Below are positions 1,559-6,658 of a stretch of 64,000 nt of DNA, one piece after another (position 1 is the first letter of the stretch; every line of letters begins with the position of its first letter). This stretch comes from an uncultured Planctomycetota bacterium. GTDB taxonomy: Bacteria; Planctomycetota; Planctomycetia; Isosphaerales; Isosphaeraceae. The stretch spans positions 1-64,000 of the forward strand of contig CAWJTV010000020.1 of NCBI GenBank assembly GCA_963845755.1, read 5' to 3'. Both the position numbers and the translations under genes were made by a program. The notes beneath the pieces were generated by a model that worked only from the letters and a program-made list of their open reading frames with translations, was not told the origin of the DNA and did not search any database.

Positions 1559-2741
1559 CTAGATCAGCTCCTCAGGCAGCGGGATCGTCCAATCATTGAC
1601 CTGGCCGGCGCGCACCGAGAATCGTCCCTCAAGCCGACTCCAGTAAGACGAGGGAACGGCAACACCGCGCTGGAAGTTGTCGAGAGACATCGGCGTTCGA
1701 GGCGACGGCTGGCCGTCATCCGGATCCTTGTAAAAAGCCGTGACATCATCTTCAAATAAATATTCGGGGGTTCCGGCGGTGTGGGCGAGCACGTCGAACC
1801 ACTCACCCTTCCTGCCCGGATCCCGGGAGGCACAGGGTCGGAGGACGACCAGACGCCGCAGCAGGTAGTGTCCCGCCTCCATAGCCACCGCATTCGATTC
1901 GGATCGGACTCCCGGAGCAGGGGGGTTATCGAAGACACACTGAACGTCCCAGGATTTCGGTGCCTGGTAGAAGTGCCACGGGTCGGATTTCGTCGCTCCC
2001 CCACTCGCGATCTGTCGGGATCCCGGCCCGTAGACGATCTTCCGGCTCCGGTCATGACCGTACAAGTTCAAGACCCTCCACTCCCGAGGCTGTTGAAACG
2101 TTGTCGCGCCTGGACGAACGTCATTTCCATCAGTAGGTTCTTGTCGACAAGATCTGCCGGCCATGGAACGCGAAGTTCGACCGCGGACTGAACGGGATGC
2201 GGCTCCGGCCGGGGCAGATGATCGTCTCGTCAACCTTGGTCCCGAGCTTGACGTTGATGGTGCCGCGACATGTCCAGCTATGCTCTTCGTCCCAGGACGT
2301 GGAAAGCTCGAACGACCAATCGCCGGGCTGAACCACGCCGAAATCGACTCGGCCGCCGGAATCCGACACGCGGCGGATGGCTCGCGAGTTGAATCCGATC
2401 GGCGGTTTTTCCGAGTCCTTTTCCAGCGCGGCCTGATACCCGACTGCGGGAGAGCCGTCGTTGGATTCCAGCACGAGCTTGAATTTGACGGGGATCCAGT
2501 CGGGCGCTCGAGTTGACTGCGCAGCCTTGGCCATCGTCCGCAGTTGCTCCAGGATCTCCGCGTCGGCCATGTGCGATTGGGTGAGCAGCTCGATCGTTTT
2601 CGCCTGGTCAGCGGCCTGACCCTCGGCCAATCGCCGCGCGACATTCATGGCCTGGTTCGACCGGTGCCAGCCCAGGCCCGAGAGCGACAGGGTTGCCAGC
2701 ATGACGATCAGACAGGCTGCCATCGATCTGCGCTGAGCCAT
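1559..2741 (-). CDS. Secreted/membrane-anchored hypothetical protein (frameshift near 2140)
   Basis: GAGGAGG RBS and hydrophobic N-terminus; ORF 2130..2741 continues into the 1559 frame. Confidence 0.6.
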
Positions 2742-2960
2742 GAGTCTCCCTCCTCAACTCGACGAGCCAAAGCCGGCCGTCCTCGGCCGCCGAAACCGCC
2801 CGGGTTACAACCGGTCCGTGCTCCACCTCTTGATGTGGCACAAGTCGCGATGATACGCAAACCATGGATCGTTGACCAGGATCTTGTGAGCCCCACCGCC
2901 GGCGAGCACGACCACGTTTGAGCGATTTACCGATGGGTTGCGCGGCAAACAGCGGATCTT

Positions 2961-3135
2961 CTGCGGCCCCAAGGGCCGCCGGAGCCCAGCCCGGGGTGGA
3001 AACCCCGGGACTCGGTCGCACCGCCCCGACGGGTGCACTATGAAGGGGTGCCGGCGGGGGTCTCCTGCGGCCCTACAGGCCGCTCGGATGCGGGTTTGCT
3101 GTTCGGACCCCGGGTTTCACCCGGGGCTTGGCTCC
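2961..3135. repeat. REP/BIME-like palindromic cluster; right arm split by the recombinase element (rest at 5144-5162)
   Basis: 2961-3010 is an imperfect inverted copy of 3107-3135 joined to 5144-5162; central hairpin GCGGCCCTACAGGCCGC at 3067-3083. Confidence 0.8.
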
Positions 3136-5143
3136 TATGACCCCAACAGAGTGGCATACAGCCCGTTGATACCTGATACTGTCATCCCTCTGAGCCGCCT
3201 CAGAGGGCGTTGAACCCGACCCTGACGCCGGACTGCTGCTTGCATGGAGGTGATCGTCCTCGCGACGTCCTACCACGGAGAGCGGACATGACACGACGAT
3301 CGGCCTTGGGACGGCACAGCCTCCGCATCCACCGGGAGTTCGTCCCCTCCCGCTGCCAGCTCCGCGCCCTGGCCTTGGCCTTCGAGCAGGCCCTCCCCAT
3401 CATCCGGAGGCCGCTGACGACGCCGGCACGACCACAAATGTTCGTTGATTCTGATTTGAATTCGTTCACACAACCAGGCCGTTCGGGGGCCCTCCGATGA
3501 CCGAACCCATCGACCGCCGCGCCGCCTTGTACGCCAGGGTCTCCACCGAACAGCAGGCCCAAGAGGACACGATCGCCAGTCAACTCGATCTGTTGCGCCG
3601 GCGAATCCAGGCCGATGGCCTGACCGTCGCCCAGGAACTCCAATTCGCCGACGACGGTTATTCGGGCGAGACCTTCCGGCGCCCCGCCCTGGAACGGTTG
3701 CGCGACACGGCCGCCGCCGGGGCGATCGACCGGATCTACATCGAGTGTCCCGACCGATTGGCACGGGATTACCCGTATCAGATGGTCGTGGTCGACGAGC
3801 TGCGCCGCCAGGGCGTCGAGGTCGTCTTCCTCAATCACGACCTCGATGAGAGCCCCGAGGGTCGACTGCTGTTGCAAGTCCAGGGGATCATCGCCGAATA
3901 CGAGCGGGTCAAGGCCCGTGAGAAGTGTCGCCGCGGCCGGCTCTACGCGGCGCGGTCGGGCCAGGTCAGCGTCCTGGGCGGCGCCTTACGGATACCATTA
4001 CCACACCAAGCAGGAGGGAGGTGGCGCGGCCCGGTATGTCGTCCAGTTCGCCGAGGCCCAGGTGGTCCGAGAGATCTTCACCTGGGTGGGGATCGAAGGA
4101 TGTTCGCTCAGTCAGGTGTGCCGACGATTGCGAGAACGCGGGCTCCTTACCCGCACGGGCAAGGCGCAGTTGGGATCGGGCCACGGTCCTGGGCATGCTG
4201 CGCAACCCGGCTTACATGGGGACAGCCCACTTCAACAAGGTCCATTGCGTCCCGGCCCGTCCCCGGTTCGCCCGCGTCGGGGAGTCCCCGAGTTTCCACG
4301 GCGACACACCGCCAAAGCGGCGACGCCCCCCGAGGACCAGATCCCGATCCCGGTGCCGGCGATCGTGGAGCCGGCCCTGTTCGAGGCCGTGCAGGAGCGG
4401 CTGGCGGAGCACCGCCGACATCCCGGCCAGGCGGCCCCCCGGCCGCGCCATCTGCTGGCGGGCTTGGTGGTGTGCCAGCGGTGTGGTTACGCGTATCGCG
4501 GTCGGGCCATGAAGAAGAAGGGAGGGAGTCGCTATGGCTATTACCGCTGTTATGGGGCGGAGGCCGAGTCCTTCGCCGGCCGGGCCCGGATCTGCGACAA
4601 TCCGGCGATCCGGATCGAACGTCTGGACGAGGCGGTGTGGTCCGATGTGCGCGGGTTGTTGCTGGAGCCGGAGCGGTTGGCTGAGGAATTCGAGCGGCGG
4701 TTGAGTCGGGCGAACCGAGGCGAGGGGACGACTCAGTCGAGTCGGAGCCTGGACAAGTTGATCGGTCAGGTCCGCCGCAGGCTGGCGCGGCTGGTGGAGA
4801 TGTACGCCGACGGATACATCGAGAAGGAGAAATTCCAGAGAGATATGGATATTTCTCGAACACGAATGTCAGAATTGGAGTTGGAGCGTCGGGCGATGGA
4901 CCAGGAGGAACAGCAACGGGAGGAGTTACGGTTGGTGATGGGTCGGATCGAGGAATTCGGGCGCAGGTACGCGCCGGTTTGGATACCAGCGACGTGGCGA
5001 CGCGTCGTCGGATCATTTGTGCACTGGTCAAGAAGGTCGAGATCGATGCCGAGGCGGTTCATATTGTGTATCGTGTGAGCCCTCGCCCTTTTGCCCAAAC
5101 GGCCTCGACAGACGGTAACATGCCACACTGTTGGGGCCGTTCC
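3134..5143 (+). mobile_element. Compact large serine recombinase integrative element (attL core 3133-3136, attR core 5141-5144)
   Basis: TCCT repeated at both junctions. The 22-bp arms 3136-3157 and 5120-5141 are inverted (18/22). Removing the element restores the REP arm. Confidence 0.85.
3288..3500 (+). CDS. 70-aa accessory ORF of the recombinase element
   Basis: GGAG RBS; ATGA overlap with the recombinase start at 3497. Confidence 0.6.
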   Translation: MTRRSALGRHSLRIHREFVPSRCQLRALALAFEQALPIIRRPLTTPARPQMFVDSDLNSFTQPGRSGALR

Positions 5144-5242
5144 TGCGGCCCTTCAGGCCGCCGCAGGACGTCCCCCAGGCTTCGGGCGGGGCTCGATTGC
5201 TCTCGCCGGAGACGTGCGCAACGCAACCGTAAAGCGCTCTAG
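3497..5242 (+). CDS. Large serine recombinase (resolvase + recombinase + zinc ribbon + coiled coil); several frameshifts
   Basis: YARVST catalytic motif, DDGYSG..RPAL, DRLAR, LRNPAYMG, LLAGLVVCQRCG..YYRC, spread over ORFs 3497, 3846, 3925 and 4979. Confidence 0.92.
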
Positions 5243-6658
5243 ACCGACAATCCTCAATTGAGACACCAACAGCTTGATGACCCGGCTAGAATTACCCGGA
5301 TTCGCTAGCTTCGCAACCACCAGGGAGGCTCTCGCCATGCCGGGCAAGACGGCCAAGGTCACCATCACCGAACGTCAACACGATCTCCTGGAGACGATCC
5401 ACAAGGCCCCCACCGCCTCGTCTCAACTCCGCCAGCGTGCGGCCATCATCCTCTGGGCCTTCCAGAAGCGGGACAACGCGGAGATCGCCGCCGCAGTCGG
5501 GCTGTCGCGGCGGCAGGTCAGCACCTGGCGACGACGTTGGGCCGATGCCTGGGAGCGGCTCATCCGCATCGAGTGCACCCAGACCCACGCCGCGTTGCGC
5601 AGGGCCGTCGAGCAGGTCCTCCGCGATGAGCCCCGCGCCGGCTCCTCCGGCAAGTTCACTCCCGAGCAGGTCGTGGCGATCCTGGCACTGGCCTGCGAGC
5701 CCCCGGAGAAGTCCGGCCGGCCGATCACTCACTGGACGGCCAAGGAGTTGGCCGACGAGGCCATCAAGCGCGGCATCGTGCCCTCGATCTCGGTCACTCA
5801 AGTGGGTCGCTATCTCCGCGAGGCCGCCTTGCAGCCGCACAAGAAGCGGTATTGGCTCAACACCCGCGAGAAAGATCCGGTGGTCTTTGCGGGGCGGGTC
5901 CAGGCGGTCTGTGACACCTACCAGGAGGCGCCGGCCCTGGCGAGGGACCAGGGGACGCACACCGTCAGCACCGATGAGATGACCGGGTTGCAAGCGCTGG
6001 AGCGGAGTGCCCCCGATCAGCCGATGACCTACGGGAGGCCCGAGCGGATCGAGGCCGAATATACGCGGCATGGGACGCTGACTCTGATCGGCAACTTCGA
6101 CGTGACGACCGGCGAGTTGATCACCCCCACGATCGGCCCGACGCGGACGGAGTTGGATTTCGTCGAACACATCGCGCACACGGTGGCGACCGACCCGGAG
6201 GCGGGGTGGATCTTCGTGGTGGATAATTTGAACATCCATGGCTCGGAGATGCTGGTGCGGTTGGTGGCCAAGGCGTGCGGGATCGCGGAGCCGTTGGGGA
6301 GGAAGAACATGCACGGGATCCTCAAGTCGGTGGCCAGCCGGCAAGCGTTCCTGTCGGAGAAGGGCCACCGGATCCGGTTCGTGTACACGCCGAAGCACAG
6401 TTCGTGGCTGAACCAGATCGAGACGGTCTTCGGAGTAATCATGAGGAAGGTGATTCGGCGCGGCTCGTTCAGTTCGGTGGACGACCTGCAGAGCAAGCTG
6501 TGGAACTTCATCGCGTATTTCAATCGGGTGTTTGCCAAGCCGTTCCACTGGACCTACACCGGTCGCCCGCTGCGGGTGAAGGTGGCGTGAAAAGAGGCAA
6601 ACGACCAAGGATGGAGAAGCCACCTTGCTCATGCTCACTCAATTGAGGATTGTCGGTC
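5242..6658 (+). mobile_element. IS630-family insertion sequence
   Basis: Perfect 21-bp terminal IR GACCGACAATCCTCAATTGAG (5242-5262 / 6638-6658); TA duplication at 5240-41 and 6659-60. Confidence 0.93.
5337..6590 (+). CDS. IS630 transposase
   Basis: HTH domains, STDEMTG, EYTRHGT, VVDNLNIH, YTPKHSSWLNQIE. Confidence 0.95.
   Translation: MPGKTAKVTITERQHDLLETIHKAPTASSQLRQRAAIILWAFQKRDNAEIAAAVGLSRRQVSTWRRRWADAWERLIRIECTQTHAALRRAVEQVLRDEPRAGSSGKFTPEQVVAILALACEPPEKSGRPITHWTAKELADEAIKRGIVPSISVTQVGRYLREAALQPHKKRYWLNTREKDPVVFAGRVQAVCDTYQEAPALARDQGTHTVSTDEMTGLQALERSAPDQPMTYGRPERIEAEYTRHGTLTLIGNFDVTTGELITPTIGPTRTELDFVEHIAHTVATDPEAGWIFVVDNLNIHGSEMLVRLVAKACGIAEPLGRKNMHGILKSVASRQAFLSEKGHRIRFVYTPKHSSWLNQIETVFGVIMRKVIRRGSFSSVDDLQSKLWNFIAYFNRVFAKPFHWTYTGRPLRVKVA

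Follow-up and report, generated by a model that had tools for sequence, protein, structure and literature searches.

A putative cargo-free serine recombinase element of insertion sequence size in a dispersed two-hairpin repeat of an Isosphaeraceae genome

The window analysed here is a stretch of 64,000 bp, namely C20:1-64000 of a 14.27-Mb, 49-contig Isosphaeraceae genome (G000). Its segment 3137-5140 is very probably a cargo-free mobile element of insertion sequence (IS) size, whose transposase would be a site-specific large serine recombinase (LSR) and whose attB site would be a repeat, as judged from sequence comparison. A BLAST search of the whole G000 genome with this segment returned six full-length copies (Table 1), which are 99.3-100% identical and 2004-2009 bp long and contain two open reading frames (ORFs) and no cargo genes. 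Operationally defined, this is an insertion sequence, being small, present in 6 copies and delimited by defined ends, with genes for its own mobility only. The end bases are identical in 6/6 copies, as are the flank halves and the orientation relative to the recombinase gene, an agreement that far exceeds chance. The comparison of the other copies by BLASTN thus gave the same boundaries and the same repeat flanks in 6/6, in agreement with the boundaries proposed in an earlier note on this DNA, hereafter the sequence-only reading.

The element, its insertion sites and the target repeat

At the left junction the window reads ...GGCTTGGC, TCCT and then ATGACCCCAACAGAGTGGCAT, and at the right junction ATGCCACACTGTTGGGGCCGT, TCCT and then GCGGCCCTTCAGGCCG, with both TCCT cores located exactly where they had been claimed. 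The element ends are inverted repeats matching at 18/21 positions by manual count, or at the previously reported 18/22 with one extra base. When joined, they form a near-palindromic attP with the arms GGGGCCGT and ATGACCCC around TCCT and with CC at the symmetry centre, so the site can be reconstructed as had been suggested. The left-end motif CCCCAACAG..GTGGCA is common to the element, to relatives and to the sister family, which is a second serine-recombinase element family in G000; the relatives referred to by handles below are G049, G091, G017, L055, L054 and L084.

The left flank of all six copies contains a hairpin of the type CCCGGGTTTCACCCGGGG plus CTGGGCTCCT, and the right flank reads TCCTGCGGCCCT..AGGCCGCC. 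Across all 15 copy pairs, identity amounts to 99.4-99.9% within the element, 62.5-91.7% over the left 120 bp and 56.7-74.2% over the right 120 bp. With flank identity so far below element identity, the six copies are independent insertions and not duplications of a larger segment.

Both flank halves were searched for in G000 by fuzzy matching with up to 4 mismatches per half, which gave 62 matches for the left half and 146 for the right one. The halves directly abut with a 4-bp overlap in 44 places and with a 3-bp overlap in 3, giving 47 strict empty sites; in the 6 occupied places the spacing is 2004-2008 bp, and a single pair is separated by 67 bp. All 47 strict empty sites carry a single TCCT, which means that the outer ends joined on paper in the sequence-only reading do exist in the genome, 47 times and with one TCCT. 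A target profile built from the 44 empty sites with the four-base overlap had 92 hits in G000 at E up to 1e-3, 78 of them near full length. Its consensus, tCCCcGGGTTTCACCCgGGGCTgGGcTCCtGCGGCCCttcaGGCCGCc, is conserved over about 45 bp, and within the TCCT of the empty sites the first C is present in 36/44 and the second in 43/44. [quoted passage not shown] Within the window, the host repeat unit extends from about 2917 to 5248 and would measure about 324 bp without the insert. The earlier claim that a multicopy repeat serves as attB agrees with these 47 strict (78 profile-level) empty sites and with 6/6 insertions at one point and in one orientation.

The Rfam scan covered window positions 2700-5400 and produced one match to Acido-Lenti-1 (RF01687, cut-off 37 bits), at 2964-3009 on the minus strand, with 29.1 bits, an E value of 5e-4 and all 46 positions aligned. 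The model comprises 46 nt, namely an 8-bp hairpin, a 12-nt linker and a 5-bp hairpin. The public description of the motif mentions proximity to group II introns. Repeat copies at 14 loci contained 10 Acido-Lenti-1 matches, five of which are empty sites of the target type scoring 32.1-33.8 bits, the other five having 37.9 (three), 37.0 (one) and 29.2 bits (one). Target-type empty sites in general cover the full 46 positions, with scores of 26-34 bits that stay below the 37-bit cut-off. Among the best 150 of 3281 first-look candidates scored genome-wide, there are at least 66 matches at E up to 0.01 and at least 33 above the cut-off. In the alignment, a 12-nt linker (CUGGGUUCCUGC) separates hairpin 1 from hairpin 2, and the TCCT insertion point is located in this linker. 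By these alignments, the target resembles Acido-Lenti-1 and is embedded in a larger MITE-like repeat. The motif is listed as a probable RNA of Acidobacteria and Lentisphaerae (Weinberg et al. 2010, PMC2864571). The target had initially been called a palindrome resembling repetitive extragenic palindromic (REP) sequences, of which the repeat nature holds, the palindrome being in fact this two-hairpin motif. The intact repeat at 2961-3010, described earlier as its inverted partner, belongs to the same repeat class in diverged form and lies on the other strand, and the additional half-site reported at 3061-3083 does match 5139-5161 at 20/23 positions.

The four bases flanking the element differ between copies. 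The attL 4-mer is TCCT in five copies and TTCT in one (C42), and the attR 4-mer is TCCT in three, TCCC in two (both C11 copies) and TCTA in one (C13, possibly a sequencing error). Left and right 4-mers are thus clearly unequal in 3/6 young insertions and differ in a fourth on an uncertain reading, which is why a target duplication of TCCT was rejected. The last base of attL, on the element side, is always T, as is the first base of attR, and the last base of attR follows the target (T or C). This pattern fits an exchange inside TCCT, and the exact crossover core is inferred to be CC.

The sister family, with 48% protein identity, has 6 copies of about 2019 bp and perfect inverted ends. Its empty site on C13 (GGAGGGATCATCTCTCC) shows a 3-bp overlap and gives a perfectly palindromic attP centred on AT. 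According to the flanks, three of its copies are inserted one way (C16, C24, C3) and three are reversed (C47, C6, C22), as opposed to the family with the CC centre, where 6/6 point one way. In serine integrases, the central dinucleotide alone sets integration polarity, and this textbook rule matches the contrast between the CC family and the AT family. In the alphaproteobacterial subfamily, attL is ATC-GT-GACCGTT and attR is GGCGTTG-GT-CGAGCG, with exactly GT shared, and the joined flanks restore W-I-V-E-R of the interrupted transposase in the deduced empty form. In G049, five empty sites found by pattern search show the flank up to ...ATTCAC, exactly CT shared and 16-nt symmetric arms. A 2-bp exchange is supported by the sister family, the alphaproteobacterial subfamily and G049.

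The right end of the element can fold into a hairpin (-15.3 kcal/mol for DNA in the C42 copy). It was considered as a hallmark of the family and rejected, being found in the window family and the sister family and in none of the five other subfamilies folded. A 42-bp remnant with the same layout as this hairpin is located inside a repeat copy at C9:40977-41018, where it is flanked by inverted and direct right target arms and displaces about 130 bp of the repeat; it may be a scar of aberrant recombination at an internal arm-like site.

Adjacent to the host repeat, an IS630-like element (window 5249-6650, ORF 5274-6590, domains DDE_3, HTH_32 and HTH_28) with the inverted ends GACCGACAATCC... is inserted at the TA of CTAG where two MITE-like repeat copies abut, and the region around 5249-6650 is a pile-up of nested mobile DNA. 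Farther upstream, at about 1000-1560, the window contains tandem repeats, and the same stretches of about 50 aa recur in ORF translations on both strands.

Table 1 Coordinates of the element copies, of the sister-family copies and of the features around the window copy (positions without a contig name are those of the window)
Feature	Position	Strand	Remarks
Element copy 1	C20:3137-5140		window copy
Element copy 2	C42:185478-187483		locus L002, best open recombinase frame
Element copy 3	C11:819391-821395
Element copy 4	C11:827481-829486
Element copy 5	C18:9665-11671
Element copy 6	C13:234426-236434
Sister-family copies	C16:2836-4854, C24:275-2293, C47:14623-16640, C6:31937-33955, C22:802-2827, C3:156927-158947
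Left part of the host MITE-like composite repeat	2917..3136	none	empty diverged motif on the minus strand (2964-3009), lone second-hairpin module (3061-3083), left target half (about 3106-3136; hairpin 1 and linker)
TCCT at the left junction (attL overlap)	3133..3136	+	proposed crossover dinucleotide CC at 3134-3135
Left terminal inverted repeat (P' arm of the putative attP)	3137..3157	+	same end in 6/6 copies
Left-end reading frame	3136..3213	+	reads Y-DPNRVAYSPLIPDTVIPLSRLRGR, stop TGA 3211-3213; continues the recombinase ORF only with the ends joined
Small ORF, 70 aa	3288..3500	+	ATG 3288; stop TGA 3498-3500 overlaps the recombinase ATG 3497-3499
Large serine recombinase gene	3497..5140	+	frame broken in the window copy; no stop codon within the element
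Right-end hairpin	5099..5140	+	inner inverted arm copy (ACGGCC.CGACAG) pairs with the outer arm CTGTTGGGGCCGT
Right terminal inverted repeat (P arm of the putative attP)	5120..5140	+	translated as MPHCWGR in the recombinase ORF
Right half of the occupied target and rest of the host repeat	5141..5248	none	TCCT 5141-5144, linker, hairpin 2, end ...GCGCTCTAG

Encoded proteins and the recombinase frame across attP

The recombinase ORF of the C42 copy codes for 527 aa and matches the Pfam domains Resolvase (PF00239, E 1.6e-30, residues 9-156), Recombinase (PF07508, E 2.5e-21) and Zn_ribbon_recom (PF13408, E 2.3e-13). An N-terminal resolvase catalytic domain with the Recombinase and zinc-ribbon domains C-terminal to it is the arrangement typical of LSRs, and the identity given to the protein in the sequence-only reading is confirmed by these three domains. 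No Pfam match to DUF4368 was detected in the recombinase at E up to 0.01. Among 54 aligned homologues the YARVS serine motif is kept: Y12, A13 and R14 never vary, and conservation is at least 90% at V15 and S16. Of the NCBIfam models, XisF, CcrB and CcrC come closest, all scoring far under their cut-offs (105 vs 375 for XisF, 104 vs 900 for CcrB). Homologues are 547-600 aa long and end in ...VHIVYRVSPRPFAQT...MPxCWGR followed by a variable tail.

The small ORF upstream is conserved across subfamilies, which bears out the description of the element as a two-gene one. A regular expression for its core motif matched 30 of the 38 sequences examined, including the window family, L055, 26 loci of the alphaproteobacterial subfamily and two G017 loci, and the ORF was also recognized by eye in the sister family and L054. 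M1, F18, R22, A31 and R41 are invariant in an alignment of 25 small proteins. The 23 unique alphaproteobacterial sequences have 18/17/29 variable sites on codon positions 1/2/3, and 10 of their variable codon columns are purely synonymous vs 2 and 2 in the shifted frames. An equivalent 65-aa ORF on a Microvirga ossetica plasmid is annotated in RefSeq as 'hypothetical protein' beside 'recombinase family protein'. The small protein family has no Pfam match at E up to 5 and no NCBIfam match, and its neighbours in a protein atlas are 'hypothetical protein' clusters only (best score 0.91). A predicted complex of the small protein with the recombinase scored 0.14 vs a mark of 0.32, which weighs neither way on binding. 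The product is a candidate accessory or directionality factor.

It is reasonably probable that the recombinase frame spans the attP junction. No stop codon occurs within the element in any of the lineages examined. The ORF passes through the right arm, where it reads (M/L/W)(P/Q)HC(W/T)G, and is terminated by a chance stop of the flank, which for the integrated window copy is TAG 5240-5242. With the ends joined at the deduced cores, the frame leads on into the left end for each lineage with a placeable core, reading ...HCWGRS-Y-DPNRVAYSPLIPDTVIPLSRLRGR and then a stop in the window family, ...CWGHS-NGPNRLAYRGLIPDTVIPLTSLRGRRY... in G091, ...CWGR-AS-VTNRVGHRHLIPDTVISVTTLRARRRHP and then a stop in G049, ...HCWGRD-HAPNNVAKLSLIPDSVISRSRLRPKYGQGW... 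in the sister family, ...DASNNVAKHLVEFSSGIPRERLRPSYGSGF... in L055 and ...DRLYNVAKLDFEWSSFIERR... in the alphaproteobacterial subfamily. The left-end peptides of the window and sister families are identical at 14/24 residues, 8 of which are encoded by different codons, including AGC vs TCG for serine. In pairwise comparisons of 8 sister-type left ends, synonymous and non-synonymous differences number 110:50 in the junction frame vs 34:135 and 13:152 in the other forward frames. The corresponding numbers over the first 17 codons of 25 alphaproteobacterial left ends are 1144:1007, with no stops, vs 251:1707 and 131:1844, and this signal fades further into the element. Such counts would point to selection on the junction frame at the level of the protein. 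The left-end peptide was found as a tail in 0/32 close database homologues with a recognizable end motif and in 0/12 longer distant homologues. If the junction-spanning frame is real, only an excised circle or a tandem pair would encode the full-length enzyme.

A perfect 9-bp hairpin (CCCTCTGAG CCGC CTCAGAGGG) is located at 3186-3207, just inside the left end, where it overlaps the end of the junction-frame peptide. It may be a terminator or an insulator against read-in transcription.

The mobility of the element, its excision and chemistry and the roles of the small protein and of the tail swap are inferred from sequence to be as follows. The LSR would bind the element ends, attL and attR each being made up of such an end and a flank half, and would cut at the central CC of TCCT, thereby freeing a circle with the near-palindromic attP and restoring the two-hairpin repeat. 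The circle would then re-enter another repeat copy, with the linker between the two hairpins of the Acido-Lenti-1-like motif as attB, in a single orientation since CC is not palindromic. As the motif forms part of a MITE-like repeat that is dispersed in the genome, landing sites that do no harm would be available by the dozen, and it appears reasonable that the enzyme could be a 'multi-targeting safe-harbour integrase', as was suggested in the sequence-only reading. The small protein, presumably translationally coupled to the LSR, is a candidate cofactor. With the LSR frame crossing attP, the full-length protein would probably be made only from the circle, and integration would swap its last ~26 residues for flank-encoded ones.

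Relatives in other phyla and rival explanations

Close homologues are mostly found on contigs of 2.0-2.9 kb, which is about the element size and is as expected for repeats that break short-read assemblies. Out of 31 metagenome loci, 25 contain elements 1997-2055 bp in length with inverted repeats of the ACAATGTTGC type at their ends, three contain 2228-bp elements with ATGACTCCCCGAACGCAAA ends and three have no convincing end pair; the same behaviour is shown by loci taken from genomes of Alphaproteobacteria and of an unclassified bacterium. Relatives in several phyla are likewise elements of about 2.0-2.25 kb. Their targets are different. According to Pfam analysis of the flanks, the sister family, L084 and L055 interrupt a group II intron reverse transcriptase, with RVT_1 broken at profile position 124/126, the insertion point lying between PQGG(V/I) and SPLLAN and GIIM and HNH being located downstream. 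In the alphaproteobacterial subfamily the interrupted gene is a DDE_Tnp_1 transposase of the IS4/IS5 type, broken behind KRWIV at profile position 163. In the clade of the window element, 17/32 homologues with a recognizable end motif have a flank-encoded tail xAPSG or TPSA, which is a translated hairpin-2-like GC..CC.TCAGG and suggests that the repeat target is clade-wide. The G049 copies adjoin another GC hairpin repeat.

Homologues at E up to 1e-40 are also present in 50 plasmid records of cultured bacteria, with family members in Microvirga, Rhizobium, Methylocystis, Nitrobacter and Pseudomonas (carriers including Microvirga ossetica, Rhizobium leguminosarum, Methylocystis rosea and Nitrobacter hamburgensis X14), and are annotated, if at all, only as 'recombinase family protein'. 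The TOL plasmid pWW53 of Pseudomonas putida (NC_008275; L103 locus 2480-6448) carries fragmentary recombinase genes of the family beside benA, and these too are annotated only in that way. Three loci of an Acidimicrobiaceae metagenome-assembled genome (L037, L038 and L039, CAVYGS01 contigs, positions 2425-4605) share a 2181-bp recombinase segment that is 100% identical in all three, has 26-bp inverted overlaps and is reversed in one locus relative to the 4.1-kb repeated surroundings; it looks like an invertible or re-inserted module.

No description of a cargo-free multicopy LSR element and no LSR targeting REP-like repeats, group II introns or IS5 genes was found in the literature searched, which did not extend to ISfinder, TnCentral or the supplements of Durrant 2022 and Weinberg 2010. 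The serine-recombinase elements thus apparently make up a widespread undescribed family. A broader proposal is more doubtful and is put forward only tentatively, namely that sequence-specific LSRs define a phylum-spanning, undescribed IS family nested in other selfish elements (Acido-Lenti-1/MITE, PQGG|SPLLAN, KRWIV|ER), in which the attP-split gene with its C-terminal tail swap and the coupled small protein might act as a sensor of the integrated vs the free state and set the direction of recombination. As a corollary of this nested-family proposal, Acido-Lenti-1 would serve, in this lineage at any rate, as a landing pad and repeat module at the level of DNA.

Several observations speak against an active, site-specific element of the kind proposed. 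All the empty sites found are paralogous repeat copies; the same-genus genome G001, with no element and about 80% DNA identity, has no synteny for the C42 site, so that no orthologous empty site was identified there, and it contains only paralogous repeat copies in which the two flank halves are adjacent. Whichever dinucleotide is chosen, one later mutation or mismatch has to be assumed for it to fit all six copies (TTCT in C42, TCCC in C11, TCTA in C13). The circle joint from 5140 back to 3137 is present in none of the contigs from four soil metagenome runs of one study, which were placed on window 2900-5400 and which, as contigs, cannot show rare forms. A conservative recombinase alone does not account for the rise to six copies, for which excision after replication followed by insertion in front of the fork, or else entry on several occasions, are guesses. 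As for the frame across attP, the antisense frame that shares its wobble positions gives 110:55 in the sister set, about equal to 110:50 for the junction frame; in the alphaproteobacterial set this antisense frame gives 812:1163 with 4 stops and would encode only a 16-aa peptide. Finally, the recombinase frame is not fully open in any of the six assembled copies, and the best two lack the G at 4958. The joined ends had no match in the G000 assembly for either family when searched with a regular expression, or in viral contigs when searched with a gapped pattern. Skip joints from 3132 to 5141 and from 3128 to 5143 were considered as excision products and rejected, the shorter side being only 21-22 nt, and were read as other repeat copies.

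One rival explanation, which seems rather doubtful, is that the copies are dead relics of a past entry into the repeat, with the recombinase genes now frameshifted pseudogenes and nothing moving in G000. Each assembled copy has at least one frame-breaking indel, the window copy having four departures from the majority, at about 3981 (-2), 4169 (+1), 4268 (-1) and 4958 (-1), and neither a circle nor an excision product was seen in the short-read contigs or the assembly. On the other hand, the near identity of the six copies does not suggest old relics, and they differ at 13 substitution columns and at 9 indel columns in 7 places, which resembles long-read consensus error more than decay. The short-read contigs, which are not assignable to a single element copy and from which rare variants are dropped, restore the frame at 3980 (+GC after it, 3 runs), 4169 (-1, 3 runs), 4268 (+G after it, 1 run) and 4958 (+G after it, 2 runs); in a third run the contig has +C after 4960 and 12 other differences from the window. 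The window version of the four indel sites occurs in none of the contigs from the four runs, and a 1305-nt contig with the C42-type left flank agrees with the assembled C42 copy. An intact recombinase gene exists in these soil communities. The breaks of the window copy would be due either to errors of assembly or to decay of this one copy, the former being favoured by the high indel-to-substitution ratio and the 87.9% completeness of G000, and the lengths of the homologues and their shared ending indicate that the frame with G at 4958 is the true one. Single-base indels are frequent among the repeat copies of this genome, which at 87.9% completeness, 14.27 Mb (14.3 Mb) and 49 contigs suggests a long-read assembly with leftover indel errors, and its other apparent pseudogenes should be interpreted with caution. 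Moreover, G049, with 63% protein identity, holds five intact copies with open frames of 558-584 aa.

It is very unlikely that the element is a passenger of a mobilized or duplicated MITE-like repeat or is copied by ectopic gene conversion between repeats. Every insertion does lie within one repeat family whose copies could pair, and the 25-30 bp adjoining each junction are highly alike between insertion sites, but identity falls from the element to its 120-bp flanks (57-92%) in 15/15 pairs and two or more repeat subtypes are represented among the left flanks. Besides, relatives in other phyla are inserted with equal precision in different conserved targets with 2-3 bp overlaps, which points to the recombinase choosing the site. 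Still less credible is a classical inverted-repeat transposon with a 4-bp TCCT duplication, moved in trans by a DDE transposase and carrying the recombinase as cargo or resolvase. The 21-bp terminal inverted repeats and the TCCT on both sides of the window copy resemble such a transposon, and DDE elements are abundant nearby, the IS630-like gene at 5274-6590 being an example. The inequality of the flanking 4-mers described above is contrary to it, however, as are the site and orientation specificity in 6/6 copies, the co-variation of the inverted ends with the recombinase subfamily across phyla in elements that encode nothing else, and the overlaps of 2-3 bp in relatives instead of fixed duplications. 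An LSR element using the repeat as attB is the preferred reading.

Comparison with known systems

Serine integrases are prized genome-engineering tools, and the known natural ones mostly belong to single-site phages or promiscuous transposons. The present family would offer compact enzymes of about 550 aa with natural, readable attP/attB pairs (six occupied and 47 strict, or 78 profile-level, empty sites in G000) and lineages tuned to different long specific targets, and its plasmid carriers among cultured bacteria make testing possible. It would also point to a consistent strategy of nesting in other mobile elements, with the abundant Acido-Lenti-1 motif gaining a concrete role as a landing site.

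Large serine integrases use an attP with inverted arms round a short asymmetric core and an attB that is only loosely similar, with the central dinucleotide orienting the reaction. The recombinase of the window has the same three-domain architecture as the integrases of phages and integrative elements (phiC31, Bxb1, A118, TP901-1). Unlike these, it belongs to no phage, and its element carries no cargo, measures 2.0 kb with two genes, is multicopy in one genome and would use as attB a dispersed repeat (in relatives, a conserved stretch of another mobile element), with an ORF that probably crosses attP.

TnpX (Tn4451/Tn4453), TndX (Tn5397) and the multi-targeting LSR clade are similar in that an LSR moves a transposon via a circle to many genomic sites; transposons of the TnpX/TndX type carry cargo genes. 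In the multi-targeting clade 63% of the LSRs carry DUF4368, and the target preference of one multi-targeting LSR is relaxed and AT-rich, with a TT core (Durrant et al. 2022, PMC10083194). The element, in contrast, has no detected DUF4368, no cargo and a long, specific, GC-rich two-hairpin target of about 45 bp, which places it outside this clade. The IS607 family shares with it the IS size, a serine recombinase as transposase and the lack of a true target duplication. In that family, TnpA has an N-terminal DNA-binding domain, terminal inverted repeats are lacking and target specificity is low (PMC6188088, PMC4058570), whereas here the catalytic domain is N-terminal, the ends are 21-bp inverted repeats and specificity is high; membership in IS607 was rejected, the model NF033518 scoring 33 bits vs a cut-off of 110 bits.

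A putative attP site inside the recombinase ORF likens the element to Mx8 Int and to the 'suicidal' integrases of the SSV type. The attP of Mx8 lies within the integrase gene int, which acquires a new 3' end upon integration (PMC6070905), and the integrase gene of SSV-family viruses, with attP within it, is split by integration (PMC7253208). Those are viral tyrosine recombinases, whereas the element described here is IS-like, with a serine recombinase known by sequence comparison, and only the last ~26 codons lie beyond the attP site in the window element. No report of attP inside a recombinase gene was found for serine recombinases in the literature searched, where remodelling of a recombinase gene by its own reaction is described only for tyrosine integrases; the element suggests the same for a serine recombinase.

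The closest likeness in insertion habit is to the REP-targeting insertion sequences, namely IS1397 and ISKpn1 of IS3 and ISPpu9, ISPpu10, ISPa11 and IS621 of IS110, which are multicopy and occupy one position in one orientation in extragenic palindromes (PMC1525189). The families listed there as targeting REP sequences are IS3, IS110, IS4, IS256 and IS5, and the word 'serine' is absent from that paper. These insertion sequences and the element have in common the multiple copies and the fixed position and orientation in extragenic repeats, the difference being that the former use DDE or DEDD transposases, with a guide RNA in the case of IS110. The family described here would thus add a serine-recombinase member to the repeat-targeting IS families.

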